From Clostridiales bacterium (GTDB taxonomy: Bacteria; Bacillota; Clostridia; Peptostreptococcales; Anaerovoracaceae), in contig JABZIP010000005.1 of the NCBI GenBank assembly GCA_015258265.1, positions 11,521 through 75,520 on the forward strand: 64,000 nucleotides of DNA, read 5' to 3'. A program made the position numbers and the translations under genes. Under the pieces are notes generated by a model. The model did not search any database. It saw nothing but the letters and a program-made list of their open reading frames with translations, and was not told the DNA's origin. Of this stretch, positions 14,518-29,644 are shown piece by piece; position 1 is the stretch's first letter, and each line of letters starts with the position of its first letter.

Positions 14518-14536
14518 ACTTTCTTCCTCCCTTCTT

Positions 14537-15703: not shown

Positions 15704-16470
15704 ATTTCAATATCCATTATCCTTCCCATCACATAATAAGCTGCTGCGGTAATAGCAAGTGCAAGTGTCATTATCAACATTCCTATTCCCGTATGATACA
15801 GCTTGTCCAAATACCCGGGAGACATCAAGTTAAGAAAAACTATTATCACAAGCGGCATTAAACTGATAATTTTTCCCTCAACACGCTTTTGCGCTGTCAA
15901 TGTTTGAATTTCTCTTGATACATTTAATCTATTAACCAAAATTTGCGTTGTATTCAAAATCACCTGTTTCACATCAGCCCCCGTACTTCTACAAATGGAA
16001 TAAGTTTCAGCAAAACTGATTATTTCGGCAATCCTACTCCTATACGCAAAATCCTTTAATAGTTCCTCCTCATTGGCATGACTTTCTTTTATAGCATTTA
16101 TCATTAAAGAAAGCTCCTGCATGATAGGCTCGCTATCGTTATAAATCAAACTCAAACTGCCTTCAGCTTCTAACAGCGCCTCCGCCATTTGTCTCCCCGA
16201 GCTTATAGATGCATCCAGCGCATATAGCAAGTCCCGAAAACTATACCTAAGCCTTTCTGAAATTTGCCGCAACCTATAAGCCTCGTAAAATCTCTTAAGC
16301 GGTACAGAAAGCAAAGAAAAAACTACAGACACGATAATGTTTCCATAAAAAATCACTCCGACCACCATAAATGCGGATATGCATTTCATATAATAATCTA
16401 CCGTTTCCTTTTTAGATAACCTGTAAACCGTATAATTCGGTTTCTTATTATCTAACTCTCCTTCGCCCAT
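15700..16470 (-). CDS. tadB: Tad pilus assembly protein TadB (T2SS F domain)
   Basis: 256 aa polytopic protein with T2SSF-like domain. Alternative start at about 16389 (MKCISAF...) would remove the overlap with cpaF. Confidence 0.7.
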   Translation of the reverse strand: MGEGELDNKKPNYTVYRLSKKETVDYYMKCISAFMVVGVIFYGNIIVSVVFSLLSVPLKRFYEAYRLRQISERLRYSFRDLLYALDASISSGRQMAEALLEAEGSLSLIYNDSEPIMQELSLMINAIKESHANEEELLKDFAYRSRIAEIISFAETYSICRSTGADVKQVILNTTQILVNRLNVSREIQTLTAQKRVEGKIISLMPLVIIVFLNLMSPGYLDKLYHTGIGMLIMTLALAITAAAYYVMGRIMDIEI

Positions 16471-17828
16471 AATTCCTCCTCTTTAAGCCCACGAAGTATC
16501 ATTTTTCTGATATTTTTCATCTTATTTCCCGTTCGCTGCAGCCCTTTTTCCTTATCATACAGGAATATTTCGTTCAACACATAATCGGAGCCGTCATGTC
16601 CCAGTATCTCTGTAATTTCAAGCACTTTTCTACTTTTATCCGCCATTCGGCTCAAATGCACCATTACATCTATCCCTTCAACAATCTGTCCTCTTATCGC
16701 GTCTATTGGAAAATCCGCCGCTTGCATTACCATAGTTTCAAGTCTTTTCAACATTCCCTTTACAGAATTACCATGTCCTGTAGAAAGTGAACCGTCATGC
16801 CCGGTATTAAAAGCATTCAGCATATCAAGCACTTCCTTGCCTCTCACTTCACCGACAATTATCCTGTTAGGTCGCATCCTCAGACTGCTTCTTATAAGCT
16901 GCTGCATATCGACCTCGCCCATACCCTGAACATTAGATTGTTTGCATTCCATTCGCACCAAATTCTCAATGCCGATAATTTGAAGCTCCGCAGCATCTTC
17001 TATAGTTATCACTCGCTCATCCTTCGGAATATACGACGAAAGCACATTAAGCATGCTCGTTTTGCCGCTTCCTGTTCCTCCACTTATAAAAACATTCGAA
17101 CCGAACCTCACCAATTTTTCCAAAAAATCAGCAGCCTCTTCCGTAATGCTTCCAAACCCTATCATATCTTTCATATCATAGGCTTTCTCAGGAAATCTCC
17201 TAATCGTAAGCGCAGGTCCGTTCAGCGCCACATTCTTATAAACGGCATTCACCCTTGATCCGTCTAAAAGTCTGGCATCTACTATAGGATTTAATTCGTT
17301 TATCTCTCTGTGGACTCTCGCCGCTATCCTCCTAATGATTTCCTCGAGCTCCTCAACATTCGAAAAACTTTTCCCCGTATTTATAAGAGTACCGTCGCGC
17401 TCCACAAAAATGTTTTCCGTGCCGTTCACCATTATCTCCGTAACTTTCTTATCTTCCGTAAATGGATACAATAGTCCGACATCGCAGCGAACCGAAAAGT
17501 AAACTTGCCTAATCAGATTGTCTTTTTCTCGAAAATTCAAATCTTTCGTAAGCTCACTGTCAAGCAATAATCTTTCGATAAATTCAAATGCCGCTTCTTC
17601 GCTTTCAAAACTTTCGCCGACACTCATGGCTTTCCTCACAAAAGAGAGTGCCTCAGTCCTGACCTCATTATCAAGTTTCACCATTCCGTAATCCAAATCC
17701 ATAATTGCGTTTTCTTCCTTTGCTTGCAATTTATTCCTGTTATATACATAATAAAACAGCTGCAATAGAATTGCAACTGTTTTAATTCGACTTTTTTCGA
17801 CATGCCTGTGGATAACTTCCTCCGGCAT
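16452..17828 (-). CDS. cpaF: CpaF/TadA family pilus assembly ATPase
   Basis: 458 aa, Walker A GGTGSGKTS, VirB11/CpaF signature ITIEDAAEL, His box. Confidence 0.88.
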   Translation of the reverse strand: MPEEVIHRHVEKSRIKTVAILLQLFYYVYNRNKLQAKEENAIMDLDYGMVKLDNEVRTEALSFVRKAMSVGESFESEEAAFEFIERLLLDSELTKDLNFREKDNLIRQVYFSVRCDVGLLYPFTEDKKVTEIMVNGTENIFVERDGTLINTGKSFSNVEELEEIIRRIAARVHREINELNPIVDARLLDGSRVNAVYKNVALNGPALTIRRFPEKAYDMKDMIGFGSITEEAADFLEKLVRFGSNVFISGGTGSGKTSMLNVLSSYIPKDERVITIEDAAELQIIGIENLVRMECKQSNVQGMGEVDMQQLIRSSLRMRPNRIIVGEVRGKEVLDMLNAFNTGHDGSLSTGHGNSVKGMLKRLETMVMQAADFPIDAIRGQIVEGIDVMVHLSRMADKSRKVLEITEILGHDGSDYVLNEIFLYDKEKGLQRTGNKMKNIRKMILRGLKEEELWAKES

Positions 17829-17858: not shown

Positions 17859-18242
17859 CTATTTGATTTCAGTTTTCCAAAGACCGTGCAAATTGCAGTA
17901 TTCATAAACTGCCAGCGGCTTTTCACCTTCGCTTAGTAGGAACTCTGCGCACGGTTTTTCGCCGGGTTTAAGATCCTTTCTATAAGCCCCTTTGCTAGTT
18001 TCCAAATAGATGAACATAATATAATGCTCCTCAAGCATAGGATGCTCAACCTCTCCAACAACTGCTGTAACTTTGTTACCCTCAACTGTTACTACCGGTG
18101 TGTGCTTTTCCAAAGCGGCATCTACCGTATTTGCAACAAGCTCCTTCATTTCCTCACCGCAACAGACAAGTTTGTCGTTGAACTCTCCAAAAACTTCCAA
18201 TATATGTCCACCGTTTGCACATTTAAAAAATTTATTTGCCAT
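17859..18242 (-). CDS. dfx: desulfoferrodoxin-type superoxide reductase with degenerate N-terminal centre I
   Basis: 127 aa; SOR centre II ligands present (EKHTP, HxxxxH, CNLH). N-terminal domain has C-x4-H...CC instead of CxxC...CC. Confidence 0.75.
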   Translation of the reverse strand: MANKFFKCANGGHILEVFGEFNDKLVCCGEEMKELVANTVDAALEKHTPVVTVEGNKVTAVVGEVEHPMLEEHYIMFIYLETSKGAYRKDLKPGEKPCAEFLLSEGEKPLAVYEYCNLHGLWKTEIK

Positions 18243-18332
18243 TTTAAACCTCCATATTATCTAATGTGTTGTAACTAGTTTATACACCAATTTTCTGCAC
18301 TAATAACACTAATAACGGAAGTTAATTTTTTG

Positions 18333-18962
18333 TCAATTTTGCGCACCGGCAAGAGCAGCTTTAACCGCTCCTTTGATGCCGTTTGAACTGTAAGTAGCTC
18401 CGGCAACCGCATCCACATCCGCACTTTGTGCTGCCAAGATTTTACCGATTACCGCCTTTGCATCATCGATATACGGAGAATCCTCTTTGTGCGAAATAAT
18501 ACTTATTGACTTGATTGCATCCGCCTTCAATACAACCGATACCGTAATATTATCGACATATCCTTTGGCACTTCCCGTAAAAGTTCCGTCTTTGTACTTT
18601 TGCGCAGGAACTGTAGGTTCCGCCTTTTCCGGTTCGGTTTTCAATATTTCTTTCTTTTCAGGCTCTGCTTTAGCAGTTGCCGTTTTTTCCGATTCCGCCT
18701 TTACGGATTTTGATTTTTCAGCTTCATCCGCCGGCTTTGCTTCCTGTTTTTCTACCGGTTTGTCTGCAGTTTTTTCTTCCGATTTTTTTGCTTCTGCCGT
18801 AGGTTCCTCCTCTTTTTTTTGCGTTTCGCTTTCCTGCTTTTCGGAAACTGCCTTCACAGTCTCACTTTTATCCCCTTCGATTTTATCAGTTTTTTCACAA
18901 CCCGACAAAAATACGCTTACACAGATTGCCAGCACAAATACCAACAACTTGACTTTTTTCAT
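18333..18962 (-). CDS. FMN-binding domain lipoprotein (ApbE substrate type)
   Basis: Lipobox FLSGC, Lys/Glu/Ala-rich linker, C-terminal FMN_bind domain with flavinylation motif DAVAGATYSS. Start taken at MKKVKLL. Confidence 0.8.
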   Translation of the reverse strand: MKKVKLLVFVLAICVSVFLSGCEKTDKIEGDKSETVKAVSEKQESETQKKEEEPTAEAKKSEEKTADKPVEKQEAKPADEAEKSKSVKAESEKTATAKAEPEKKEILKTEPEKAEPTVPAQKYKDGTFTGSAKGYVDNITVSVVLKADAIKSISIISHKEDSPYIDDAKAVIGKILAAQSADVDAVAGATYSSNGIKGAVKAALAGAQN

Positions 18963-19047
18963 AATCTCCTCCATATACATTTTTTAATTTCATCCACGTT
19001 TATATTTTTTATTTCATTCTTTTGCTCGCATACTTGCTTCAGAGCAC

Positions 19048-19752
19048 CTAATGTTTTTCGCTTTTTTGCCCTAGCGCCTTTCTGATTCTCAAAAATGCGT
19101 ACATACCGAATACAACCGTATAAATGGCAGAGTCGATAACATAATGCCAAAATACGTCGTAATGCTCAAGTTGCCGCATTTGCAGAGCTATTGATACAAA
19201 AATCAACATTACATGAATATATATGAGCATATAGAACGGATACGCCAATCTTTGCAGTTTTTTCCAACTTTTCGCTTTCATCTTTTTCCTTACGCTCTTA
19301 AATGATGTGATCATCAAAGGCAACATAACAGCATCCAAAACTATCGTCAGGATAGTAGCAATTACAAAAGGTGTACTCAAGCGCTCTCTTGATGTAAAAA
19401 GCCACACTATATAATTTTTCCCATAGAAAAAATTGTGCACAAGTGTCAATATACAAGCTATAATCGAAAGCTCTGCACGAACCGACATCAGCCGTATCTT
19501 GATTTGTGTACCGTTTTTAAATATAGCAGCCCACATCACAAGTGTAAAAAGTGCAGTCGCCACTATTCCCCGTTCAAACAGCATAGATATCTCATGAAGC
19601 AGGGCATTTGTACGCATAATCTCAAAGCCTGCCGCCGATATGCAAAATATGACAAATGCACCTATGTAGTAAACAGGTGCGTATTTTTTAATAGATTTGT
19701 GCAAAAACATCACAACGGCAAGTAAAACCACCGTAGTTAAAATAAATTTCAT
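19048..19752 (-). CDS. ferric-reductase-like transmembrane (MsrQ/YedZ-type, di-heme b) protein
   Basis: 234 aa, 6 predicted TM helices with conserved His in TM helices (HNFFYG, YIHVML). Lies immediately upstream of the FMN-binding lipoprotein. Confidence 0.6.
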   Translation of the reverse strand: MKFILTTVVLLAVVMFLHKSIKKYAPVYYIGAFVIFCISAAGFEIMRTNALLHEISMLFERGIVATALFTLVMWAAIFKNGTQIKIRLMSVRAELSIIACILTLVHNFFYGKNYIVWLFTSRERLSTPFVIATILTIVLDAVMLPLMITSFKSVRKKMKAKSWKKLQRLAYPFYMLIYIHVMLIFVSIALQMRQLEHYDVFWHYVIDSAIYTVVFGMYAFLRIRKALGQKSEKH

Positions 19753-19849
19753 AGTACATCCTTATTTGTTTTATATACTTTAACTTTATAATCTTTAAAT
19801 ACTATAATAAAAAATTAAACTTTTTAAATTTTTGTGTTTAGTCTGCAAT

Positions 19850-19873
19850 AGGAGTGGCTGAAAAGCCACTCCT
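19850..19873 (-). terminator. 10-bp perfect stem-loop (AGGAGTGGCT-GAAA-AGCCACTCCT) 8 nt downstream of the SLH gene stop; weak U-tract
   Basis: Seen directly in the sequence; there is no strong T-run on the minus strand. Confidence 0.4.
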
Positions 19874-19880
19874 AAATTTG

Positions 19881-22094
19881 TTAAGGTTTAGAAATCCATA
19901 AATCATTTTTTTCACCCAATAATTTTCTGAGTTCACCATTACCATTTAGCATGTCATCAAAGTTTTCTATATTAATACTAATAACTATATTAGTTCCTCC
20001 TATAACTCTAACCCTTTTTATCTTTAAATCTGTATGACTTATTGCTTGCCCAGACTTATTATAAAACTGAATGTTATCGGCATTTATGCCACTTAAACTT
20101 GAACCCAAAGTTTGAAAATCTTCTTGTTTAAGTTGATATCTGGCTTTATTTTTTACTAATGTAATTTTTACTTTTTTCCCATCCTTAGAAATTTCCAAAT
20201 AATCAGGTACATTATTAGCATTCGACACATCAGCTGCCTCTATCGTTATTTTGTGTTCATAAAATACACTGTCATCTTCTTTATATGCGATTTTTAAGCT
20301 TATCTGTTTGCCTGCATCATTCGGATCATCTGTTATAACATCTCCTATATTCAAAGGTGAACCATTTTTCGTTATAGTCAAATAATTTGTGTAATTTAAC
20401 TTGTTCACATTTTCGCTATATTTATCCTCATTTTCAGCAATCAATTTTACAGCAAAATCATCACCAATTTCAAATTTATCGCCTACCTTAACTTTGTTTT
20501 TTATTCCGGTAATATATTCAATGCCTATAATTTTCCTCTGCTCTTCCTCCGTAACATTCGTAAAATCTTTTTTATAATCGATACGATATGTTTCAAATTC
20601 AAACATTTTTTCTGCATTTAAATTGTGTGTGTTTTCTTGCAACAAGGTGTCTTTCTCCGATTGTGCAACATCTATATATAGACTTCCGCTTTTTTTATGC
20701 GCATCACCTCTATAATGCTTATCGCCTACCTCTTTCAGCGTTACCCTGCTACCGTCGCTCTTGATAAGCTCGATATCCTGCAATTCTTTGTGCGCTAAAT
20801 CAATTCCCACCTCGTATCGGAACTCCGAATTTTTTCCGTGGCTCACAACTATGTCTTGATAAGTAATTTCTTGCGGTGATTTTTTATCCTTCAAAACAAG
20901 CCTTATTTTCTCAATTTGCACATATATCGGTTTTACCGAAAATTGCACTTCTTTCAAAAGCTCCATGCCGGATTCTTTGTGTTTCCAATGTATTTTATAA
21001 TTTGCACGATAATTTGTATTGTCAGTTCTATTTATCGGTTTTGTAATATCTATTTTTTCGCCGTTTTTGTCGGTTACGAATACTTCAATCCCCTCGCTGT
21101 CAAAGTCCTTGGCTTGTATCTCGCGCCCTAATTTCAGTACCGAGTTGCGATTTGATTTTGTAACGGGATTTGGTAGAGAAGTGTGCACCGGAATCAATCT
21201 GATACTTGCCGGCAAAAGCTCAATTTTCTCACCGAAATATTGCGGAACGCTCTCATACGCATGATCTGCCAAGAATTTTTCTTTTTCCTTTTCATCCGAT
21301 AATGCAGCCAGCGCTTTCTTTTGCTCCGCAGTAAGCTCATGCTTTTCAAATTTACCCGGTGCATTTATCAACCAAAAGCCCTTGTATTTTTGCTGTTTTC
21401 CACTTTTCGCATCATTGAGCGCATTTTTGAAGCCTTTTCTAAAACCTTCCGCACTTTTTGTCGAACCGCTAACAGCATCAACAATAGCACCAACACCCTT
21501 TTTCTCATTAAATTGCTCATAAATTTTCTTTAATGGTGTTTTCTTTACATAATCTACTACTCTTTCCGAACCGCCTGTATATTTCCAATCATCATCATCG
21601 TCCACGAAAAACTCAAGCGCCGCGTCTACAACGGTCCCCCTTGCTATGGATATTTTCGCTATATTCTTTTTAGGGAAATCGAATCCTTTATCTCCATTTT
21701 TGCTTTGTCTTTCCGCACTCGAAAATCCATACCCCTCACCGTAATATGTGCCATCTTTAAAAGTCGAATCTATTTCCGATTCTTGCGGTGCATGATACTC
21801 TCCCAGTTTTAAATTCATAGCCTTTAATTGAGAGCCTGTTTTAACCTCAATTTCGTATTTAATTGAAGGTTCGAATATATACTCCCCGTTTTCATTTTTA
21901 GCTGCAAAATTTATTTTGCTCGAATCTGTATTTATTATTCGTTTTGCTATTTCACCTCTATATACAGCTTCTTTTCCTGTATCAACCGGCTTGGCTTTTA
22001 TTTTTACCTCTTCTACACTGCTCACAAGCATTTTTAGAAGTCCGGAATTTTGATCGCCTGCAACCGCCAAATCTCCCTTTTGGTTCATAGTCAA
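19881..22094 (-). CDS. SLH/FMN-binding surface protein paralog 1, C-terminal segment after frameshift
   Basis: 737 aa. The +1 frame continues the interrupted FMN_bind domain (SNGLVRAVENAVIAGN), then a third FMN_bind (VSGSTKSAEGF) and Ig-like repeats. TTG/ATG start overlaps the upstream stop. Confidence 0.6.
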   Translation of the reverse strand: MTMNQKGDLAVAGDQNSGLLKMLVSSVEEVKIKAKPVDTGKEAVYRGEIAKRIINTDSSKINFAAKNENGEYIFEPSIKYEIEVKTGSQLKAMNLKLGEYHAPQESEIDSTFKDGTYYGEGYGFSSAERQSKNGDKGFDFPKKNIAKISIARGTVVDAALEFFVDDDDDWKYTGGSERVVDYVKKTPLKKIYEQFNEKKGVGAIVDAVSGSTKSAEGFRKGFKNALNDAKSGKQQKYKGFWLINAPGKFEKHELTAEQKKALAALSDEKEKEKFLADHAYESVPQYFGEKIELLPASIRLIPVHTSLPNPVTKSNRNSVLKLGREIQAKDFDSEGIEVFVTDKNGEKIDITKPINRTDNTNYRANYKIHWKHKESGMELLKEVQFSVKPIYVQIEKIRLVLKDKKSPQEITYQDIVVSHGKNSEFRYEVGIDLAHKELQDIELIKSDGSRVTLKEVGDKHYRGDAHKKSGSLYIDVAQSEKDTLLQENTHNLNAEKMFEFETYRIDYKKDFTNVTEEEQRKIIGIEYITGIKNKVKVGDKFEIGDDFAVKLIAENEDKYSENVNKLNYTNYLTITKNGSPLNIGDVITDDPNDAGKQISLKIAYKEDDSVFYEHKITIEAADVSNANNVPDYLEISKDGKKVKITLVKNKARYQLKQEDFQTLGSSLSGINADNIQFYNKSGQAISHTDLKIKRVRVIGGTNIVISINIENFDDMLNGNGELRKLLGEKNDLWISKP

Positions 22095-23380
22095 AGATGA
22101 TTCGTCGATATTACCTGCGATAACCGCATTCTCAACAGCTCTAACCAGTCCGTTGCTCCTGATACCGCAGATATTTTCTCTGTCGATGTTATATCTGCAA
22201 ATTGTTTCAATATGGAGCTTTTCACACTCGCCAAATAGCTTACATCCTCGCTATTTTCCTCTATAACAACATTTTTTATCACATTGTCTTTTACGGTTAC
22301 CTTTACATTCATCTGCCCCCTATATCCTTGCGCAGAACCTGAATACTCCTTATCCGACAATTTTTTCAGATATCTTGAAAGGTCAATACCGCTATAAAGC
22401 GCTGTCGAATGTTTTCTATTGGCGCCTGTACTTCCTACCGTTCCGATGCTCCCCTCTCCTTTTTGCTGTGATATGCAATCCTTTACAGCGTCCTTGATTG
22501 CATTGCACGAAAGAGTTGCTCCGGAAATATTGTCTATTCCTTCCACGCTTTGTTTTTCAATAATTTGTGCTATAATAGCTTTTGCTCTGCTTAAATACGA
22601 GCCTGTTTCATTGTCGGAAATTATCTTAATATCAACTATTTTCCCTTTATCAAAAAGCACCTTCAGCTTCATCGTACCGCCGTAGCCGGCTCCCGTGCCT
22701 TCAAATGCCTGCTCGTTGATATTTTTGAGTACCTCTGCCATTTTTCTTTCGCTCTTTGAAAGAATCAGAACCGCTTGTGCCCTACTTATGCCTTTCTTCG
22801 GATTCAATCTGTTAAATTCTCCGCTAATTACACCTGCTGCTACCAGTACCGATATAGCTTCCCTCGCATAATCCGATATAGCTCCCGCATCGGAAAATTT
22901 CGATATATCCGCGACTTTTTGTCCTTCTTTACCCTTTGGATAAGTGAGCCTATAAAGCATTACGAAAGCCTGTTCTCTGGTAATTGCAACTTCCGGCGAC
23001 ATAGTGTTCGCACCTGTCCCCTTCATGTACCCCGCCTGTAACGCCTTCGCCATGTCGGATCTGTACCATGCATTGCTACTTACATCCGTAAAATCGGATA
23101 TCTTGCTGCTTTCTTCAGAAAATTGCATGATTCTGTTGATTACCGCAGCATATTCAGCTCTGCTCATATTTTTATCAGGGAATACCCTCCCGCTTTCATC
23201 TCCTTTTAGATAGCCTTTTTTGTTAAAATCTTTAAGCGTATTTACCATCCAGTGTCCATCTATGTCCGACGGCATTATACCTTTGGCTTCCTCTGCATTT
23301 GCAGCTGTAAAAAATCCGGTCATTGATACAAATCCGAATACAAATGCAAAAGTCAAAATGGAAAGTCGTCTAATATTCAA
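22091..23380 (-). CDS. SLH/FMN-binding surface protein paralog 1, N-terminal segment (signal peptide, 3 SLH, FMN_bind 1, truncated FMN_bind 2)
   Basis: 429 aa. First approximately 220 aa are identical to the 24853..28551 protein. Ends ISAVSGAT followed by out-of-frame residues. Confidence 0.65.
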   Translation of the reverse strand: MNIRRLSILTFAFVFGFVSMTGFFTAANAEEAKGIMPSDIDGHWMVNTLKDFNKKGYLKGDESGRVFPDKNMSRAEYAAVINRIMQFSEESSKISDFTDVSSNAWYRSDMAKALQAGYMKGTGANTMSPEVAITREQAFVMLYRLTYPKGKEGQKVADISKFSDAGAISDYAREAISVLVAAGVISGEFNRLNPKKGISRAQAVLILSKSERKMAEVLKNINEQAFEGTGAGYGGTMKLKVLFDKGKIVDIKIISDNETGSYLSRAKAIIAQIIEKQSVEGIDNISGATLSCNAIKDAVKDCISQQKGEGSIGTVGSTGANRKHSTALYSGIDLSRYLKKLSDKEYSGSAQGYRGQMNVKVTVKDNVIKNVVIEENSEDVSYLASVKSSILKQFADITSTEKISAVSGATDWLELLRMRLSQVISTNHL

Positions 23381-23508
23381 TTTTGTTCCTCCTCAATATT
23401 TCATGTATTTTAGTTGTACTTTGTTAGCATATGCTAACTATACGAAGGGAATTATATCATTAGCCATAGGCAACTGTCAATATTTTGAACACAAAAAAAC
23501 ATTTGTGT

Positions 23509-23562
23509 CCAAATGAATTTATACATGTGTAAAAAAACAGGCTTGAATAAAATTCAAACCTG
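23509..23562. repeat. 54-bp direct repeat copy A, containing a bidirectional rho-independent terminator (A7-stem-T7)
   Basis: CCAAATGAATTTATACATGTGTAAAAAAACAGGCTTGAATAAAATTCAAACCTG; copy B at 24754-24806 has 3 differences. Confidence 0.8.
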
Positions 23563-23582
23563 TTTTTTTAATGCGTTTACGC

Positions 23583-24650
23583 TCACTCCAGCTCGCGCCT
23601 GGTTCTACGCATAAACTCAACTAATTGCTCTTTGGTCGGTAAATGGAGCATATATGTCGATACAAACAACTGATTATCCATACCTGATAAAGCATACTCG
23701 ACCATCTCAGTTCCCTTATCTGTACAAAGCAGAATACCTATCGGCAAATTGTCGCCTTCTACCATTTCATTCTTTTTATAGTACGCCACATAGGAATTCA
23801 ATTGCCCAAGATCCTCATGCTTGAATTCATCGTTCTTCAGTTCAATGATGACATTACAATGAAGCAACTTGTTATAGAAAACCATATCTATGAAATAATA
23901 CTTATCGTCTATTACAATTCTCTTTTGTCTGGCTTCAAAGCAGAAACCTTCACCTAGTTCAAGTATGAACTCTTGCAGATGATCTATTAAAGCCTGTTCC
24001 AGAACTGATTCAGATACCGCATCACCCGGATTCAGTCCAAGGAATTCAAATGTAAACGGATCTTTTATTGATAATGCTGTGCTTCTGGCATTATCCTCTG
24101 ACAGCTTCATCAACAACTCTGGCTTCTTACTGATTCCAGCTCGCACGAATAAATTCGTCTTAATCTGTCTGCGCAGTTCTCTAACGCTCCAATTACATTT
24201 AATCGCCTCTGCTTCATAGAAGTATCTTTCCATCGGGTCATCAAGAATCATAATTTCCCTTATGTGTGAAAACGAAAGATTGTCAACCAGCAATTCCGGT
24301 TCCATAATAAATTCGTGCGACAATGTCGCACTTTTTTGAAAATCAAGCAACCCCAATTGGTGCGACACTGTCGCACCAATCTGCGGATACATAACATAAA
24401 ACTGTCTGCACCACTTGAATAGCGTAGAATTTAATCCCTTTTGATCGATCTGCCTCTCCAGATTGTTTAAAAGATTAGTTCCATACTCTGCTCGATCACT
24501 ACCACCTTGCTCATACTCAACTATATAGTAGCCAATAGCCCAGTTCCTAAGTGTCATCAGTTTGTTAACGGCATGCTTTGCCACGTTGCCCGCCTCGTCA
24601 TTGAGCTTTTTTATGCTGTCTGCAAGCGTCATGAATTTGATATCCGACAT
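23583..24650 (-). CDS. yhcG: YhcG/DUF1016 family PD-(D/E)XK nuclease
   Basis: 355 aa. C-terminal IDMVFYNKLLHCNVIIELK...GQLNSYVAYY matches the YhcG_C PD-(D/E)XK core (D...ELK); N-terminal YhcG_N-like domain. Confidence 0.75.
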   Translation of the reverse strand: MSDIKFMTLADSIKKLNDEAGNVAKHAVNKLMTLRNWAIGYYIVEYEQGGSDRAEYGTNLLNNLERQIDQKGLNSTLFKWCRQFYVMYPQIGATVSHQLGLLDFQKSATLSHEFIMEPELLVDNLSFSHIREIMILDDPMERYFYEAEAIKCNWSVRELRRQIKTNLFVRAGISKKPELLMKLSEDNARSTALSIKDPFTFEFLGLNPGDAVSESVLEQALIDHLQEFILELGEGFCFEARQKRIVIDDKYYFIDMVFYNKLLHCNVIIELKNDEFKHEDLGQLNSYVAYYKKNEMVEGDNLPIGILLCTDKGTEMVEYALSGMDNQLFVSTYMLHLPTKEQLVEFMRRTRRELE

Positions 24651-24753
24651 AATGATTCCTCTCGTTTCTAATAAGAAATTTCCCTATTTCGTTTATATTT
24701 TGATTATATCTTATTAGCACTCCTGTTACAACTACATTATCTCACGACAATCT

Positions 24754-24806
24754 CCAAATAAATTTGTACATGTGTAAAAAACAGGCTTGAATAAAATTCA
24801 AACCTG
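24754..24806. repeat. 54-bp direct repeat copy B, acting as terminator of the upstream SLH gene
   Basis: CCAAATAAATTTGTACATGTGTAAAAAACAGGCTTGAATAAAATTCAAACCTG; hairpin followed by a T6 run on the minus strand. Confidence 0.8.
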
Positions 24807-24852
24807 CTCTTTAATTTTAGTTTACTGCAATTTGCTTATTGGGATTGCGCTA

Positions 24853-27800
24853 TTAATCTTCGTCATGTCCTTCTTCGCCGCCGTTATTTTCGCCATCCTG
24901 ACTGTCATCATCACCCTCTTGGTCATCACCCTGATCATCGCCGTCATCCTGATTGCCCTGCTCATCCTCGTTATCCTTTTGGTCGTCTTCGTTTGCAGGT
25001 GGATTTGGCTGTTCACCCGGAGTGCCCGGGTTAGCAGGCTCTTGTGGCTTTTCAGGTACAGTTGATTGTTCGCTATCCGACGATTTTTTTACCATAAGAT
25101 ATTCCTTGGACTTAATCTCCAATCTTAAATCTCCATACTCAAATGTTACCTTTAAATTCTTTAAAAATGCATTTAACGGTGTCAATACAGTCTCATTTTC
25201 AGGATCTGTAGATATTCCATAATCATCAAAGAATTCAGGAGTTACATCTTTTACCTTTCCATCACTACTTTTCAATGTAACAATCATGCCCGCAACATCA
25301 AATTTTTCTCCAATAAAGTACTGCATTTTGGGTAGTTTTTTGATTTCTATAGAAGTTGTTTTCTCAATATCATAATCATCTTGAGGCTCTTGCGACTCTT
25401 CTTTTTCTACATCAAAAGTGATTTTGTAGAAAAAGTTTACATTAAGGTCTTTTTCGTGATCCTTCTCATCCATAGAAAATTTTAATTCTTTGTTTTCATC
25501 ATTTTTATCTATTTTCAATTCATCTTTTGCGATGATATACTTAGAATCCGAATTCGCTGAATCTGTAGGATTTTTTCTAACAATTCTTAACTTAAGATTT
25601 TTTCCTACAAAATTATCGTTCCATTTAGCTCTGCTAATAGCTACTTTTTGATGAACATTTATGTTATTTTCATCGTACGGTGCACCCGGAGTTGGCTTTG
25701 CCTTTTCAGGATTATCTACGTCTTTCCAATCCTCATTTCCAATTTTATATTGCATCCCCACAGTCCAATTTTCATTATATTCATCATTGACTACTATCGA
25801 AAATACATCTTCCCTAAGTGAAGGTCCATGCTCTATCAATATAGGTACTGCATATGTAGGAAAATCTTTGAGCTTCATACCATCAGTTATAAGCGTTCCG
25901 TTTTTCGTTTTCATGGTTATGCCATTTCCTGCAAATTGGTCAATCCCGATTTCACTTATAGTGCCGTTTTTGTTTATAAGTTTTACTTTTAGTTTGCTCA
26001 AGTTTAAAGGTAATATCCTATTTGTGAAAACTTTTTTGTCCAAAATTCCTGTAACTTCAATCTCATTAATTTCATTATTGGTTTCATTATCATGAGCTGA
26101 AAGTTCAAGCGCATTACCAACAGAATTTGCAATACCGCCTGCCGTCAATGTCGCTCCCGAAACGCTGTCAAACAGATCGTCTTTATCATACTCTCCTGCA
26201 AGATATGTCTTTACCGCTTTTGAAATTTCTCGAACCACATCAGTTGAAGAAGCCGAGTTTGAAATTTCTTGAACTATTTTTGCACAATTTTTACCTAAAA
26301 GTTCTGTAGCTTTTGCATTTCTTTCAGAATTGATCTTAATATTTTCAATTTCACCGGTATATTTATAACAACACCTAACGACAGCAATATTTTTGCGAGC
26401 ATTTTCACCGGAAATAAAATTTAATAATCCTTCTGCTTTTTCTATATAGCCCGGATCTTCACTTATTAAGCTATCGCCCGGAAGTATCTCAATGCTCTTA
26501 ACCACTCCATTTGTAATTTTTACCTTTGTCTTTACCGTTGCTGTATCATTAAAACCTTTACCAACTCCTATAAATATGCCATCCTTAAGTTTTCTATCCA
26601 CAGTCAGTTCTTTTATAAGTTTGTCCGATGCAGTTTTAGCCGCCTTTTCACTTGCCTCAAGTGTTGATGCAGCATCATTTGAGCCGTTTTTAACTACATT
26701 AGGAGATTGTAAAACAAGTTTAAATCCATCACTTTTATATTCTTTTTGTTCTTTGTTAAATTCACTTACCGATTTAGGCAATCTTAAATTTTCAACCTTA
26801 CTTGTTGAAGTAATGGTTACATTTCCATTCTTTGCCTTTGCACGCAACGTTTTTACATTGGCAGCTATGGTAACTTCCTTATCTCCGGTTTCTAAATCTT
26901 TTGCTAATTCTATTTGCTTTATTTTAGCATTTTCAAGCGTTTTGATAATTGCGGGTGTTTTAACAAGTACATTTTCCAGCTTCGTCGAACTGTCTACTAC
27001 AAGTCTTGGTCTTTTGCCATTATTCTTAGCTATTATAACATCTCCCTCGACTTTCGTATTTTTCAAATATATACCATGCGATCCTCCACCATTTATTATC
27101 AGTTTCCCGCTTATTGTAACATTCTCCAATATTACATCGCCATCGGCAACTTTTTCTGATACTGTAATATCCTTTTCTATTGTCACATTTTTTACTGCAA
27201 CTTTATTACCTACTAAGTTGGCCGATATGATTTTTTTCCCATTTCCATCATACTGCCCGCTTATTGATTTTTTACCACCGGCGTTTTCAAGAGCATTTAC
27301 AACCGCATTAATAAGTCCTATGCTGCTTTTTGTTGCTCCGGATACCGTATCCACTTTAGTTGATTGTGTATTTATTATTTTTTGTATAATACCTTTTGCG
27401 CCTTCATCTCTTAAATAGCCTGCATCATCATGGTTCGCATATTCAATTTTGCTTATCTTTCCATCCTGCACAGTAACTTTCACACTCATAGAGTTTCTAC
27501 GGTATCCATCTGCCCTTCCCTCATACGTTCCATTATTCAGCTCTGCAAAATCAACTTCCTGTTTAGCTACAGCCACGCCACCACCTTTACTGCTTCCTGT
27601 GCTTCCGACAGTACCTATGCTGCCCTCCCCTTTTTGCTGAGATATGCAATCCTTGACAGCATCTTTTATTGCATTACAAGAAAGAGTTGCACCTGAAACA
27701 TTGTCTATGCCCTCTACGCTTTGTTTTGCGATTATCTGCGCTATGATTTTCTTTGCCCTTTCAAGATACGAGCCTGTTTCATTATCGGAAACTATCTTAA

Positions 27801-28551
27801 TATCAACTATTTTCCCTTTATCGAAAAGCACCTTCAGCTTCATCGTGCCGCCGTAGCCGGCTCCCGTGCCTTCAAATTCCTGCTCATTGATATTTTTGAG
27901 TACCTCTGCCATTTTTCTTTCGCTCTTTGAAAGAATCAGAACCGCTTGTGCCCTACTTATGCCTTTCTTCGGATTCAATCTGTTAAATTCTCCGCTAATT
28001 ACACCTGCTGCTACCAGTACCGATATAGCTTCCCTCGCATAATCCGATATAGCTCCCGCATCGGAAAATTTCGATATATCCGCGACTTTTTGTCCTTCTT
28101 TACCCTTTGGATAAGTGAGCCTATAAAGCATTACGAAAGCCTGTTCTCTGGTAATTGCAACTTCCGGCGACATAGTGTTCGCACCTGTCCCCTTCATGTA
28201 CCCCGCCTGTAACGCCTTCGCCATGTCGGATCTGTACCATGCATTGCTACTTACATCCGTAAAATCGGATATCTTGCTGCTTTCTTCAGAAAATTGCATG
28301 ATTCTGTTGATTACCGCAGCATATTCAGCTCTGCTCATATTTTTATCAGGGAATACCCTCCCGCTTTCATCTCCTTTTAGATAGCCTTTTTTGTTAAAAT
28401 CTTTAAGCGTATTTACCATCCAGTGTCCATCTATGTCCGACGGCATTATACCTTTGGCTTCCTCTGCATTTGCAGCTGTAAAAAATCCGGTCATTGATAC
28501 AAATCCGAATACAAATGCAAAAGTCAAAATGGAAAGTCGTCTAATATTCAA
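24853..28551 (-). CDS. giant SLH-anchored multi-FMN-binding surface protein (paralog 2)
   Basis: 1232 aa. Signal peptide, 3 SLH repeats, FMN_bind x2 (VSGATLSCN, VSGATKSS), a right-handed beta-helix-like repeat region, FMN_bind 3 (VSGATLTAGG), Ig-like repeats, and a 50-aa acidic D/E/Q/G C-terminal tail. Confidence 0.8.
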   Translation of the reverse strand: MNIRRLSILTFAFVFGFVSMTGFFTAANAEEAKGIMPSDIDGHWMVNTLKDFNKKGYLKGDESGRVFPDKNMSRAEYAAVINRIMQFSEESSKISDFTDVSSNAWYRSDMAKALQAGYMKGTGANTMSPEVAITREQAFVMLYRLTYPKGKEGQKVADISKFSDAGAISDYAREAISVLVAAGVISGEFNRLNPKKGISRAQAVLILSKSERKMAEVLKNINEQEFEGTGAGYGGTMKLKVLFDKGKIVDIKIVSDNETGSYLERAKKIIAQIIAKQSVEGIDNVSGATLSCNAIKDAVKDCISQQKGEGSIGTVGSTGSSKGGGVAVAKQEVDFAELNNGTYEGRADGYRRNSMSVKVTVQDGKISKIEYANHDDAGYLRDEGAKGIIQKIINTQSTKVDTVSGATKSSIGLINAVVNALENAGGKKSISGQYDGNGKKIISANLVGNKVAVKNVTIEKDITVSEKVADGDVILENVTISGKLIINGGGSHGIYLKNTKVEGDVIIAKNNGKRPRLVVDSSTKLENVLVKTPAIIKTLENAKIKQIELAKDLETGDKEVTIAANVKTLRAKAKNGNVTITSTSKVENLRLPKSVSEFNKEQKEYKSDGFKLVLQSPNVVKNGSNDAASTLEASEKAAKTASDKLIKELTVDRKLKDGIFIGVGKGFNDTATVKTKVKITNGVVKSIEILPGDSLISEDPGYIEKAEGLLNFISGENARKNIAVVRCCYKYTGEIENIKINSERNAKATELLGKNCAKIVQEISNSASSTDVVREISKAVKTYLAGEYDKDDLFDSVSGATLTAGGIANSVGNALELSAHDNETNNEINEIEVTGILDKKVFTNRILPLNLSKLKVKLINKNGTISEIGIDQFAGNGITMKTKNGTLITDGMKLKDFPTYAVPILIEHGPSLREDVFSIVVNDEYNENWTVGMQYKIGNEDWKDVDNPEKAKPTPGAPYDENNINVHQKVAISRAKWNDNFVGKNLKLRIVRKNPTDSANSDSKYIIAKDELKIDKNDENKELKFSMDEKDHEKDLNVNFFYKITFDVEKEESQEPQDDYDIEKTTSIEIKKLPKMQYFIGEKFDVAGMIVTLKSSDGKVKDVTPEFFDDYGISTDPENETVLTPLNAFLKNLKVTFEYGDLRLEIKSKEYLMVKKSSDSEQSTVPEKPQEPANPGTPGEQPNPPANEDDQKDNEDEQGNQDDGDDQGDDQEGDDDSQDGENNGGEEGHDED

Positions 28552-28777
28552 TTTTGTTCCTCCTCAATATTTCATGTATTTTAGTTGTACTTTGTTAGCA
28601 TATGCTAACCACACGAAGGGAATTATATCATTAGCCATCGGCAACTGTCAATATTTTGAACACAAAAAAACATTAATTTTTTCGAAAGAACAATATGTGT
28701 ATTTACAAAAAATAAGGAGATACCGTAGTTTCTCCCTATTTTTAAATTTAATACCCTATATACCATAAAGCGGTCTA

Positions 28778-29644
28778 TTATTTACCTGCTAAAGTTCTGA
28801 TGTAATAAAAAAGATACTGCTGCGCTATTCCGCCGTTATCCCCAAAATGAGTTGCCGCATATTCATTCATCCCTTTTGTATCCTTCTCATCAAAGCCATA
28901 AACATCGTGCATCACGCGCTTCACCCAGACATCTATGGGAAACGCCTCAAATTTGCCGAGTCCAAATAACAATATGCAATCCGCTACCTTCGGTCCTATA
29001 CCGGAAAGTCCCAAAAGAAATTCACGTGCCGTTTTGTAATCCATTTCTCCTATTCGTGCAAATTCCTCGTGATTTCTTGCAAGCTGCGCACTTGTAACAG
29101 CTATGTACTCAGCCCTATATCCCAATTTCAGTATTTTTAAATCTTCGACACCGGCTTTTTGAAGTTCAAAAACTGTCGGAAACGCATAATGCGCTTCGCC
29201 ATTTTCACATACAATTCGCTCGCCGAATTTCTCTGCAATTGCGTTTATACATTTCTTTATTCGCGGTATATTGCTGTTTTGTGAAACTATAAACGAAATT
29301 ATCGTTTCAAATATGTCCTGTTTCAAAATTCGTATTCCCTCGCCATAGGAAATTGCTACAGCGAGTTTTTTGTCTTTCGCAGCAAGTTTTTCTTTAATCT
29401 TCCCATAATCTCTGCTAAGATCAAAATAACTTTCCCAAAATGCCCTATCTGCTACTGCATTTTTTGCCTCAATCGTAAGTACACCCGAGTAATTATCTCG
29501 GTTCTCAAGCGAAATATACGCGGCTTTGTTGGAAACTATCCCGAAATATCTACCGTCCGCCTGCCTTTCCCACCGAAAACACTGCCCACATTCAAATATT
29601 TGCACCAAGTCAAAGTCGCGGACCTGCAATTCTAATTTTTCCAT
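28778..29644 (-). CDS. ogg: 8-oxoguanine DNA glycosylase / AP lyase (Ogg family, HhH-GPD)
   Basis: 288 aa, HhH-GPD motif LSGIGPKVADCILLFGLG with catalytic Lys/Asp, Ogg N-domain. Confidence 0.75.
   Translation of the reverse strand: MEKLELQVRDFDLVQIFECGQCFRWERQADGRYFGIVSNKAAYISLENRDNYSGVLTIEAKNAVADRAFWESYFDLSRDYGKIKEKLAAKDKKLAVAISYGEGIRILKQDIFETIISFIVSQNSNIPRIKKCINAIAEKFGERIVCENGEAHYAFPTVFELQKAGVEDLKILKLGYRAEYIAVTSAQLARNHEEFARIGEMDYKTAREFLLGLSGIGPKVADCILLFGLGKFEAFPIDVWVKRVMHDVYGFDEKDTKGMNEYAATHFGDNGGIAQQYLFYYIRTLAGK

Follow-up and report, generated by a model that had tools for sequence, protein, structure and literature searches.

The window analysed here is a stretch of 64,000 nucleotides from a Clostridiales contig, in which a cluster of minus-strand genes encodes an FRD-superfamily membrane protein, an FMN_bind lipoprotein and two large proteins, A and B, that combine S-layer homology (SLH) and FMN_bind domains. 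The features considered are as follows.

594-1571, strand not given: hemB, confirmed by Pfam
10263-11291, minus strand: ApbE FAD:protein FMN transferase, lipoprotein, 342 aa (Pfam E=3e-85; NCBIfam ApbE)
17859-18242, minus strand: desulfoferrodoxin (superoxide reductase), cytoplasmic (Pfam and NCBIfam)
18333-18962, minus strand: lipoprotein of 209 aa with one FMN_bind domain (Pfam E=1.2e-14)
19048-19752, minus strand: FRD-superfamily membrane protein of the STEAP/MsrQ single-haem type, 234 aa (homologues, fold, motifs)
19881-22094, minus strand: protein B, C-terminal ORF, 737 aa; spacer, expanded FMN_bind 3, beta-rich region
22091-23380, minus strand: protein B, N-terminal ORF, 429 aa; signal peptide, three SLH domains, FMN_bind 1 (T289), partial FMN_bind 2
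22151-22156, minus strand: site of a 13-bp deletion, AACTTTTACGAGA, with AAC microhomology flanks (alignment with contig L004)
23451-23480, minus strand: promoter of gene B, with a consensus identical to that of gene A, in a duplicated 123-bp upstream segment
23583-24650, minus strand: YhcG/DUF1016 PD-(D/E)XK nuclease gene, between A and B (Pfam)
24853-28551, minus strand: protein A, 1232 aa, three SLH and three FMN_bind domains (Pfam)
28622-28651, minus strand: consensus sigma-70 promoter of gene A (TTGACA, 18-nt spacer, TATAAT, TG extension; 12/12)
28778-29644, strand not given: OGG 8-oxoguanine glycosylase, on the other flank of the cluster

The desulfoferrodoxin gene follows the lipoprotein gene downstream, at a distance of 90 bp, and, together with OGG, brackets the cluster, an arrangement shared by the close clade and L090, the nearest other species with both A-like and B-like genes. 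At the start of the window, hemB is accompanied by the N-terminal part of hemL, identified by motif, the gene running off the window. A sequence-only reading of this DNA had suggested that these two genes supply haem to the membrane protein; they are present, but the link is weak and they would equally serve corrinoid synthesis. Rex, ferredoxin and PFOR were found in the neighbourhood as described. No gene for an acceptor, a donor, quinone metabolism, quinone biosynthesis or an NADH:quinone oxidoreductase was found in the window, and no CxxCH motif occurs in any protein of the cluster or the window.

Flavin-binding proteins and ApbE

Protein A starts with a Sec signal peptide, followed by three SLH domains, FMN_bind 1 (T289), FMN_bind 2 (T407), a right-handed beta-helix (residues ~431-625) and an expanded FMN_bind 3 (T801), and ends in a beta-rich module without an assigned function, a weak Big_3-like Ig module and an acidic tail. 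FMN_bind 3 is divided by a helical insertion of ~75 aa (24.5 bits), also seen in the structure model. Each of the three flavinylation threonines lies in a D-x-V-S-G-A-T motif, and the description of A as an SLH-anchored protein with three SGAT-bearing FMN_bind domains was upheld by Pfam and by these motifs. The gene A promoter is conserved in L090 and L005.

Positions 19881-23380 had been taken for a single gene, but comprise two ORFs in different frames because of the 13-bp deletion, which is situated at about nt 22154, directly past the Thr410 codon, and cuts FMN_bind 2 of protein B just past that residue. In the reference contig, L004, gene B is intact (1170 aa); the contig of the window measures 89405 bp and L004 89418 bp, a difference of exactly 13, and the two are otherwise identical save for 2x10 substitutions in the A/B repeat. 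Records of the truncated product are confined to this NCBI MAG (MBF0980295.1), whereas some 50 related sequences are unbroken, with lengths of 1159-1170 aa (intact orthologues, 1158-1256 aa), so that the break is either private to this record or an artefact. FMN_bind 3 of protein B carries SGST (T645 in the intact protein), and with this third motif and the split at Thr410 the proposal of three [S/T]GAT domains in B holds only in part. The beta-helix attributed to both paralogues is present in A but not in B, whose beta-rich C-terminal region of ~500 aa matched no recognisable family.

The two paralogues are near-identical in their 5' third (95.8% at the nucleotide level) and unrelated in their C-terminal parts. 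They are not adjacent tandem genes, as had been supposed, since the YhcG/DUF1016 gene intervenes; this gene is outside the redox system, is absent from between the A-like and B-like genes of L090, and is flanked by a duplicated terminator-like palindrome (23532-23568 and 24776-24812).

The lipoprotein gene has a GGAGG ribosome-binding site ahead of its ATG (18962), and its product was recognised correctly from the outset as a lipoprotein with one FMN_bind domain. Between the lipobox (LSGC) and this domain lies a disordered tether of 96 residues rich in E/K/A/T/S/P. The expected flavinylation threonine is present, Thr190 being the predicted site, within DAVAGAT; the motif thus reads AGAT. The annotation of ApbE as a lipoprotein also stands (lipobox FSAC). 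It was the only ApbE detected in a window-wide HMM scan, and is presumed to be the flavinylating enzyme. Its linkage is less secure: it shares the window, but it is absent from the corresponding position in L090.

A membrane protein of the STEAP/MsrQ branch

A Pfam scan of the membrane protein returned no match even at E<=10, PF01794 failing outright, and a profile search of PDB sequences also gave no match. NCBIfam matched it to the C-terminal YedZ-like region of MamZ (E=7e-6), and 164 homologues were found, named ferric reductase-like or YedYZ haem subunit, many with PF01794 and many as FMN_bind fusions. For the AlphaFold (AF2) model (pLDDT 92), the best PDB folds in Foldseek were STEAP1/2/4 and NOX5, with weak E-values of 0.02-0.5. 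The ferric-reductase-like identity suggested earlier is therefore carried by homologues, fold and motifs, but not by the PF01794 check. Hydropathy and the model agree on seven transmembrane helices, in place of the six first counted, owing to an extra N-terminal helix.

The only invariant histidines of the family are H106 and H180, and R92, W163 and Q167 are also invariant. In hhalign (E about 0.01), W163, Q167 and H180 align with W147, H151 and H164 of Escherichia coli MsrQ, and R92 with R77, the roles of the MsrQ residues being taken from PMC12525009. H106 and H180 are the predicted bis-His ligands of an outer haem, and R92, W163 and Q167 a predicted inner flavin site. As Arg92 and Gln167 occupy the inner-haem positions and only two histidines are invariant, the protein bears the STEAP/MsrQ signature of a single haem with an inner flavin, and the di-haem protein originally envisaged is unsupported. 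Homologues, model and motifs together place it in the single-haem STEAP/MsrQ branch.

With E. coli MsrPQ and human STEAP1-4 the protein has in common the fold and the predicted single outer bis-His haem, and with MsrQ and the STEAPs an Arg that precedes the His by 14 residues on the haem helix and a W-x3-(H/Q)-x12-H motif. It differs in lacking both an MsrP molybdoenzyme partner and the N-terminal NADPH domain of STEAP, in its extra helix, in its predicted acceptor, a covalently flavinylated protein, and in its marginal sequence similarity to these proteins (hhalign E about 0.01).

Gene linkage among homologues

Homologues of the membrane protein were surveyed across 80 species, counting neighbours within 10 kb. 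FMN_bind was fused to the homologue in 42 of the 80 species and encoded by a separate gene in eight, whilst ApbE was found within this distance in 38. In the fused homologues, an extra helix puts FMN_bind outside the membrane, and the lipoprotein is collinear with the FMN_bind part; as most relatives carry such a fusion through one extra helix, the pair in the window represents a split version. A multi-FMN gene was near the FRD gene in 12/80 species, and immediately upstream on the same strand, as here, in nine. An A-type module (two FMN_bind domains, an expanded FMN_bind 3 and the domain without an assigned function) is located directly upstream of FRD in Eubacterium brachy, L077 and L082, and the order A-like, B-like, FRD, FMN_bind is preserved in a species only ~60-65% identical.

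Several observations count against a conduit. In 26/80 species the FRD gene has neither FMN_bind nor ApbE within 10 kb, so that the family must have other settings too, and only 12/80 have a multi-FMN neighbour; ApbE is 8 kb off, on the far side of a Tad/Flp pilus operon; genes A and B are each equipped with a separate promoter and terminator and so may not be co-regulated with the FRD gene; and gene B is disrupted in this record. The desulfoferrodoxin adjoins the cluster in the close clade, yet is near the FRD gene in only 3/80 species; thus, although it does lie directly downstream as described, its membership of the system is doubtful.

A putative outward electron path

Comparative genomics makes an outward path from the FRD protein through the lipoprotein to the SLH proteins, with ApbE, plausible; of the path first proposed, the di-haem protein, the quinol donor and the novelty did not survive. 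Domain content, motifs, signals for export and anchoring, fold and conserved gene linkage were established directly; cofactor occupancy, donor, direction and order of transfer, and acceptor we infer as follows. The membrane protein would hold one bis-His haem b near its outer face (H106/H180) and a flavin in the inner pocket (R92, W163, Q167), and would draw not on quinol but on a cytoplasmic reductant, for example reduced flavin, ferredoxin/flavodoxin or an NAD(P)H:flavin reductase. The outer haem would reduce FMN held covalently on Thr190 of the lipoprotein, whose FMN_bind domain may act as a swinging arm on its disordered tether of ~96 residues, handing electrons through collisions to the corresponding domains of A and B. 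These proteins, whose genes each have a consensus promoter of their own, would present three FMN domains apiece, strung like beads, and deliver the electrons to an oxidant that is outside the cell or associated with the wall; all the flavins would be attached outside the membrane by the lipoprotein ApbE. No recognisable catalytic domain was found in A or B, only adhesin-like beta-helix and Ig-like modules. As the flexible domain arrangement provides no fixed cofactor chain, 'wire' is only a metaphor.

The cluster had been thought to represent no characterised system, but MsrQ-like clusters and SLH-bearing multi-flavin clusters spanning the cell wall, with the analogy to multihaem cytochromes, were published by Méheust et al. 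(eLife 2021, PMC8238504) and by Huang et al. (mSystems 2024, PMC11334425), and an AlphaFold model in which an MsrQ-like protein is complexed with a flavinylated protein anchored in the membrane has also been published. Common to those MsrQ-like clusters and the present one are an FRD cytochrome beside an FMN_bind protein that is exported or anchored, together with ApbE, and a predicted route from cytosol to haem to covalent flavin; the window protein differs in having no PF01794 match and no NAD domain, in its STEAP-like Gln at the inner site, and in its FMN_bind partner being a separate lipoprotein and not a fusion. The multi-flavinylated wall proteins (PMC8238504 Fig. 6; SaFMN3/CbFMN4, Tong et al. 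2023, PMC10339131) likewise have two or more FMN_bind domains bearing [S/T]GA[S/T] as beads on a string, SLH anchoring is listed among them, and their clusters contain several FMN_bind proteins and a transmembrane module. Such multi-FMN proteins are flavinylated by ApbE and have a potential of -184 mV (PMC10339131). Peculiar to the window are the two paralogues with a shared 5' third and unrelated C-terminal parts, the beta-helix in one of them, and an FMN_bind 3 that a helical insertion divides and that precedes a conserved domain without an assigned function. The flavin-based electron transfer locus of Listeria monocytogenes (Light et al. 2018: Ndh2, EetA/B, DmkA/B, PplA, FmnB) also has a lipoprotein with covalent FMN (PplA-like) that is matured outside the cytoplasm by FmnB, an enzyme of the ApbE type, and an outward path across a Gram-positive envelope. 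Its membrane step, however, is Ndh2 with demethylmenaquinone and EetA/B, none of whose genes occur in the window, as against an FRD haem protein here, and PplA carries a pair of FMN_bind domains and is without SLH partners. In multihaem conduits (Mtr/Omc; Thermincola wall cytochromes), several envelope cofactors similarly bridge membrane and exterior, but the present proteins lack CxxCH, and flexibly linked flavins are predicted here, not a fixed stacked chain.

The same components could instead manage O2 and reactive oxygen species, the wall flavoproteins burning O2 at the surface of a strict anaerobe with cytoplasmic reductant delivered through the FRD protein, as part of an oxidative-stress neighbourhood to which the bracketing desulfoferrodoxin and OGG genes would belong. 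An extracellular flavin shuttle to O2 is used by Faecalibacterium. A multi-FMN protein, once reduced, reacts in vitro with O2 (PMC10339131), and MsrQ serves in the repair of oxidative damage (PMC12525009). We nonetheless regard this explanation as rather unlikely, given the rarity of desulfoferrodoxin at FRD loci; moreover, O2 reduction by free-standing flavins yields superoxide or H2O2 outside the cell with no extracellular peroxidase or SOD nearby, and neither a PerR nor a Rex site was found, the Rex-operator search being at chance level. An assimilatory reductase, acting at the wall on Fe(III) or on haem or siderophore iron for uptake, as do STEAP and fungal FRE, seems improbable. The STEAPs, the best structural matches, are ferric reductases, some MsrQ-like clusters are linked to VIT1 iron transport (PMC8238504), and a Paraclostridium sordellii FRD homologue adjoins an SLH protein, a Shr-like haem-binding protein and ApbE; but the annotated window contains no Feo, VIT1, ABC iron or haem transporter, NEAT/Shr domain or Fur box, A and B have no recognisable metal- or haem-binding module, and the consensus promoters look constitutive, not iron-regulated.

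A slightly more remote prospect is that there is no pathway, the FRD protein and lipoprotein being self-contained and A and B being S-layer flavoproteins that are simply neighbours, with an unrelated purpose such as adhesion or flavin storage. The separate promoters and terminators and the adhesin-like C-terminal parts would suit this, as would the lack of a multi-FMN neighbour at 68/80 FRD loci and the complete absence of A from contigs L002 and L003. Against it, the nine species with a multi-FMN gene directly 5' of FRD are distant and differ in their anchoring domains, and exported covalent FMN needs an electron source to be of use, for which no candidate other than the FRD unit is encoded nearby. 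The least probable explanation is the di-haem protein of MsrQ/YedZ type oxidising membrane quinol and passing electrons onward to the flavins. Older FRD/MsrQ-like descriptions do predict two haem sites (quoted in PMC8238504), and ubiquinone and menaquinone co-purify with MsrQ (PMC12525009), but besides the residues at the inner-haem positions and the missing quinone genes, the potentials of MsrQ, the closest studied relative (haem -256 mV, FMN -340 mV), are too low and exclude quinol as donor, the electron source of MsrQ being a cytosolic flavin reductase (PMC12525009).

The cluster is a new case of two classes predicted in PMC8238504, the MsrQ-like flavinylation systems and the SLH-anchored multi-flavinylated proteins. 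On balance, we lean towards placing it, as a clostridial representative, among the MsrQ-like transmembrane electron-transfer systems associated with flavinylation, one that would be coupled to two SLH-anchored multi-flavinylated proteins.

The membrane protein and its flavin partners

The genes under consideration occupy the following positions in the window:

10263-11291 (gene start at 11291): ApbE lipoprotein
11418-17828: Tad/Flp pilus operon
17859-18242: desulfoferrodoxin (Dfx)
18333-18962 (-): FMN_bind lipoprotein
19048-19752 (-): 234-amino acid ferric-reductase-domain (FRD) membrane protein
19881-23380 (-): gene B, a paralogue of gene A, split here into two ORFs
23583-24650: YhcG/DUF1016 nuclease
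24853-28551 (-): gene A, encoding an SLH and FMN_bind protein
28778-29644: 8-oxoguanine glycosylase (OGG)

Searches of Pfam with the membrane protein, PF01794 included, returned no real match at E<=10 (a sole WLS-like match was meaningless), which is formally the outcome that the sequence-only reading had named as refuting its ferric-reductase-like assignment. The identity nonetheless survives on NCBIfam, homologues, a structural model and conserved residues. NCBIfam matched the protein to the YedZ-like C-terminus of MamZ (E=7e-6), and 164 homologues were retrieved, many of which carry PF01794 or are named as ferric reductase-like proteins or YedYZ haem subunits, with precomputed PF01794 matches present in homologues approximately 40% identical to the window protein. 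A profile of a 31-sequence family alignment matched no PDB sequence at E<=1. An AlphaFold (AF2) model generated with the same alignment (pLDDT 92, pTM 0.87) displayed the FRD transmembrane fold, its best Foldseek matches in the PDB being STEAP1, STEAP2, STEAP4 and the transmembrane domain of NOX5 (probability 0.9-1.0, TM-score 0.4-0.54, E only 0.02-0.5).

MsrQ and STEAP constitute an FRD subgroup in which the outer haem (H91/H164 in MsrQ) is the only one and a flavin replaces the inner haem, the inner flavin of MsrQ being held by R77, W147 and H151, the last of which is replaced by Gln in STEAP (PMC12525009). Across the 31-sequence alignment, the only invariant histidines were H106 and H180, and R92, W163 and Q167 were likewise invariant. 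Alignment with E. coli MsrQ (sequence from NC_000913) utilizing hhalign paired W163/Q167/H180 with W147/H151/H164, and the 14-residue spacing from R92 to H106 is the same as that from R77 to H91 of MsrQ; the outer His pair is present, and Arg and Gln stand in place of the inner pair, where single-haem proteins have Arg and His/Gln. These residues argue for membership of the single-haem STEAP/MsrQ branch with a STEAP-like signature, for which a haem b and an inner flavin are predicted. The di-haem protein proposed previously is unsupported, there being only two invariant histidines and no His at the inner-haem positions. In MsrQ, the potentials of the haem (-256 mV) and FMN (-340 mV) exclude quinol donation as too low, and the electron donor is a cytosolic flavin reductase (PMC12525009). 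By analogy, the STEAP-type single-haem and inner-flavin signature argues for a cytoplasmic donor, which is more likely than the quinol donor of the sequence-only reading.

The nearest species of the GTDB set encodes a membrane protein 81% identical to that of the window, and every other species was at or below 50%, hence the lineage is poorly sampled. As it is partly invisible to Pfam, this Clostridial FRD subfamily was probably under-counted in the published survey.

The gene for the FMN_bind lipoprotein begins 85 bp 3' of the FRD gene on the same strand, placing an MsrQ-like and an FMN_bind gene in one cluster, as in MsrQ-like systems. Pfam and sequence inspection bore out several earlier assignments, namely the single FMN_bind domain of this lipoprotein, the ApbE lipoprotein, the desulfoferrodoxin (Pfam and NCBIfam) and hemB at the window start, where the N-terminal part of hemL was also recognized by motif and runs off the window. 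Gathering scores of PF04205 were exceeded by the lipoprotein (55 bits), A (113 bits, three domains) and the N-terminal ORF of B (84 bits, two domains); the third domain of A alone scored 24.5 bits across the full profile, and that of B was sub-threshold at 17-18 bits. The flavinylation motif [S/T]GA[S/T] is defined in Méheust et al. 2021 (PMC8238504). An [S/T]GAT motif had been claimed for all three domains of both A and B, which holds for five predicted acceptor threonines within SGAT (T289, T407 and T801 of A, T289 and T410 of B) but not for the third site of B, which is SGST (T645); the lipoprotein carries another variant, AGAT (T190). Lipoboxes (LSGC in the FMN_bind lipoprotein, FSAC in ApbE), Sec signal peptides ending ANA/EE in A and B, and SLH domains place both substrates and ApbE outside the cytoplasm by inspection. 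The 96-residue tether of the lipoprotein is rich in E, K, A, T, S and P.

ApbE is separated from the lipoprotein stop (18333) by 10 genes and ~7 kb that include the Tad pilus operon; the typical spacing in Méheust et al. 2021 places apbE within ~5 genes of the cluster. When every window ORF was searched with purpose-built HMMs, no further FMN_bind, ApbE or FRD genes were found. The intervening Tad/Flp operon appears complete, encoding a CpaF-type ATPase, TadB/C-like proteins, a 50-amino acid Flp1-like pilin, DUF5702 and others, and a type IV prepilin peptidase gene is located 18 kb from it on the opposite strand (35334-36047). Elsewhere in the window, a 396-amino acid CofE-like F420-0:gamma-glutamyl ligase family protein (45881-47071) carries a large insertion when compared with the profile of 218 positions, and a 527-amino acid ORF upstream of the PFOR gene (62385-63968) matched no Pfam family at E<=1e-5.

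Proteins A and B and the history of their repeat

Protein A (1232 amino acids) contains three SLH and three FMN_bind domains according to Pfam, as anticipated, and intact B contains the same complement; both carry export signals, and hence have the composition of multi-flavinylated proteins. The two genes have in common 123 bp of upstream sequence and 318 codons at 95.8% nucleotide identity. Profile alignment extended their homology through the third FMN_bind domain, the remaining C-terminal parts being unrelated; the beta-helix attributed to both paralogues is present in A and missing from B. In L090, the nearest other species with A-like and B-like genes, the shared part is longer and the A-like gene has no beta-helix. 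On this pattern, together with near-identical 5' parts set against unrelated C-termini, A and B are mosaics whose 5' parts appear to have been homogenized by mutual recombination.

A model of A residues 431-1135 (705 residues, pLDDT 86) contained an FMN_bind fold with a helical insertion inside it, followed by beta-rich modules, the last of which is weakly Big_3-like. No catalytic fold was apparent in the model, which had no Foldseek match in the PDB at E<=0.001 and only weak Ig-like and S-layer matches, leaving the domain C-terminal to FMN_bind 3 without an assignment. A word-indexed protein search retrieved five relatives each for the A-specific and B-specific regions; only exhaustive HMMER searches revealed that three modules of the A-specific region recur across 1328 proteins. 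The arrangement of two FMN_bind domains, an expanded third and this unassigned domain was found to occur with SLH, Rib or other wall modules.

Gene B had been described as a single gene; here it consists of two ORFs in different frames. Alignment with L004, a near-identical twin contig, identified a 13-bp deletion, AACTTTTACGAGA, directly 3' of the Thr410 codon with AAC microhomology. L004 is 89,418 bp in length relative to 89,405 bp for the NCBI contig, an excess of exactly 13, and over 12.7 kb the two differ only by this deletion and two sets of ten substitutions in the A/B repeat. The 429-amino acid truncated product is recorded for this MAG alone, and approximately 50 related sequences have lengths of 1159-1170 amino acids. 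Given these intact relatives and the intact copy in L004, gene B is intact in the species, the break here being either a variant peculiar to this record or an artefact of assembly or polishing. A programmed frameshift and a real pseudogene were both considered; the former was rejected, since a deletion of 13 bp is responsible, no other record shows it, and L004 is longer by exactly that length. The ten substitutions relative to L004 lie at equivalent sites of B (22790-22913) and A (27961-28084), both copies reading ‘GAI...NPKKG’ in the window and ‘ATV...NSKKD’ in L004, which points to gene conversion between the two genes or to mis-resolution of the repeat during assembly or polishing.

A and B are not adjacent as had been stated, since the YhcG nuclease gene lies between them. 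This gene is missing in L090, where the A-like and B-like genes are directly tandem, and two further contigs (L002 and L003) have neither A nor YhcG, the outcome expected of recombination, or of assembly collapse, across the repeat. A 37-nt element composed of an A-run, a palindrome and a T-run, AAAAAACAGGCTTGAATAAAATTCAAACCTGTTTTTT, was observed at 23532-23568 and 24776-24812 within a ~61-bp direct repeat, one copy being directly 3' of gene A and the other directly 3' of the YhcG gene. It looks like a bidirectional terminator duplicated upon insertion of YhcG between A and B.

Each of A and B is preceded by a perfect extended sigma-70 promoter that is kept in L090 and in another comparison contig, L005. 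A perfect 16-bp palindrome, GTTAGCATATGCTAAC, follows the -10 box by ~10 nt in both leaders (23423-23438 and 28594-28609); its half-sites, GTTAG...CTAAC, are kept in the distant L090, where the flanks diverge, and it could act as an operator or form a stem-loop in the 5' mRNA. Redox control by Rex was unsupported, as the operator TTGTGAAN4TTCACAA with up to three mismatches gave 10 matches relative to 5.8 expected, none of which were in the relevant promoters, and an Rfam scan of the window returned zero RNA families. A GC-rich hairpin with an 11-bp stem (19849-19874) lies directly 3' of the gene B stop, without a clear coding-strand T-run, and a weak promoter-like site lies 5' of the FRD gene; on these features, the FRD and lipoprotein genes may be transcribed apart from B.

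Linkage across genomes

A genome collection was scanned for FRD genes, and the 80 species loci retrieved were annotated with HMMs built for this analysis. Exact protein matches assign the window to an NCBI metagenome-assembled genome (MAG; proteins MBF0980282-MBF0980331, locus tag HXK71_), and contigs near-identical to that of the window were also found in many ENA and Logan metagenomes.

Gene content at the 80 species loci with an FRD gene
FRD fused to a C-terminal FMN_bind domain: 42/80
Separate single FMN_bind gene <=10 kb from the FRD gene: 8/80
ApbE <=10 kb from the FRD gene: 38/80
Protein with at least two FMN_bind domains near the FRD gene: 12/80 (8 of them with SLH)
Multi-FMN_bind gene directly upstream of the FRD gene, same strand: 9 of these 12
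Desulfoferrodoxin near the FRD gene: 3/80
FRD alone, no FMN_bind or ApbE <=10 kb: 26/80

In the fusions, the FRD core is joined to the FMN_bind domain through an additional transmembrane helix and an acidic linker, which places the flavin domain outside the membrane. Judged from these fused relatives, the FRD and lipoprotein genes of the window represent a split, lipid-anchored version of one conserved unit. A-type modules were found immediately 5' of the FRD gene in the cultured Eubacterium brachy ATCC 33089, which has two copies, and at loci L077 and L082; several oral and gut Clostridia share this placement. L090 keeps the order A-like, B-like, FRD, FMN_bind lipoprotein, Dfx and Tad pilus, with ApbE absent.

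Several other gene associations were observed. In many genomes of Oscillospiraceae and Ruminococcus, the gene immediately 5' of FRD-FMN_bind-ApbE encodes an exported protein of ~490 amino acids without a Pfam family (L007 4194-5663 and ~25 other loci, e.g. L027, L034, L063 and L067). A lipobox is present in the L007 member, a hydrophobic anchor forms the C-terminus of the family consensus, and a conserved N-terminal ‘VDAV(S/T)SATTSKW’ is similar to a flavinylation site. Some giant SLH multi-FMN proteins (L017, L050 and L052) also contain this domain; a relationship to A and B was rejected, as the family HMM had no significant similarity to either. At 24 loci (L011-L074; e.g. L007 7888-8780), genes for a NusG_II-domain protein and a PF07456 ‘Gx transporter’ membrane protein come after ApbE; the two could act together in flavin export or maturation, and the 64-kb window encodes neither. 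In Paraclostridium sordellii (L093 1-5684), an FRD homologue is divergent from genes for an SLH protein, an 875-amino acid Shr-like haem-interacting-domain protein and ApbE, which hints that some family members handle haem or iron at the wall.

A proposed outward electron relay and its alternatives

The best-supported reading of the cluster is an outward electron relay. The sequence-only observations are confirmed in part and their interpretation is supported in part. A cytoplasmic reductant would reduce the inner flavin site of the FRD protein, from which electrons would pass to the outer haem b, then to the FMN of the tethered lipoprotein and on to the FMN domains that A and B hold in the wall. 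These would finally reduce an external oxidant. With flexible links between the FMN domains, transfer would proceed by collision and not along a fixed wire. Multi-FMN proteins are flavinylated by ApbE, have a potential of -184 mV and react with O2 once reduced (PMC10339131).

The main alternative is that the acceptor is O2 itself and that the cluster scavenges it, with which the flanking positions of Dfx and OGG are consistent. A weaker alternative, that the purpose is reduction of iron or haem, draws on the STEAP analogy and the P. sordellii locus with its Shr-like protein. Within the preferred reading of an outward relay, we tentatively consider a complete conduit with a single haem b and no cytochrome c, a proposition that is more doubtful than probable. 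In such a conduit, a cytoplasm-fed STEAP-like protein would deliver electrons to a flavin on a ~100-residue tether, and thence to S-layer-anchored, adhesin-shaped tri-flavin proteins and an attached surface or oxidant, with the A-type module, in which two FMN_bind domains precede a split third and a beta-domain, as a dedicated terminal reductase or contact module.

The cluster was compared with known electron transfer systems. Unlike MsrPQ, in which the partner is the periplasmic molybdoenzyme MsrP, the window has no molybdopterin oxidoreductase among its annotated genes. By Pfam annotation of the window's genes, the Listeria-type flavin-based EET locus (Ndh2, EetA, EetB, DmkA/B, PplA and FmnB) shares with the window the PplA-like and FmnB-like (ApbE) functions alone, neither Ndh2 nor a prenyltransferase being present. 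Conduits of multihaem c-type cytochromes contain multiple CxxCH motifs, whereas A, B, the lipoprotein, the FRD protein and ApbE contain zero, and no window ORF of at least 100 amino acids contains two or more.

The sequence-only reading described the combination as uncharacterized; its hypothesis is essentially that of Méheust et al. 2021 (PMC8238504), by which systems of this kind were predicted. That study defined MsrQ-like flavinylation clusters and multi-flavinylated proteins, some clustered with SLH-bearing proteins, and proposed wall-spanning multi-step pathways likened to multihaem cytochromes. Huang et al. 2024 (PMC11334425) subsequently presented models of an MsrQ-like protein together with an anchored flavoprotein, and of multi-FMN proteins as beads on a string. 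No paper in the later searchable literature assigns a function to such systems. Relative to the text of the 2021 study, the additions made here are modest: a Pfam-invisible Clostridial FRD subfamily, its STEAP-type signature, split versus fused organization, and the repeated occurrence of the A-type module beside FRD.

Multi-flavinylated wall proteins and MsrQ-like flavinylation systems have been catalogued from genomes with no demonstrated function; how electrons might pass through the thick wall of Gram-positive fermenters that lack multihaem cytochromes is a further question. The locus is a compact, well-resolved example, with an FRD/FMN unit split over two genes, two SLH-anchored tri-flavin paralogues under strong promoters and a lipoprotein ApbE, and the pairing of an A-type protein with FRD in cultured Eubacterium brachy provides an experimental entry point. 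Current thinking is not overturned; rather, a published hypothesis is refined and extended. If true, the complete conduit would be the first function assigned to multi-flavinylated proteins, and would provide a wall-spanning mechanism for monoderm anaerobes that are probably without quinones.
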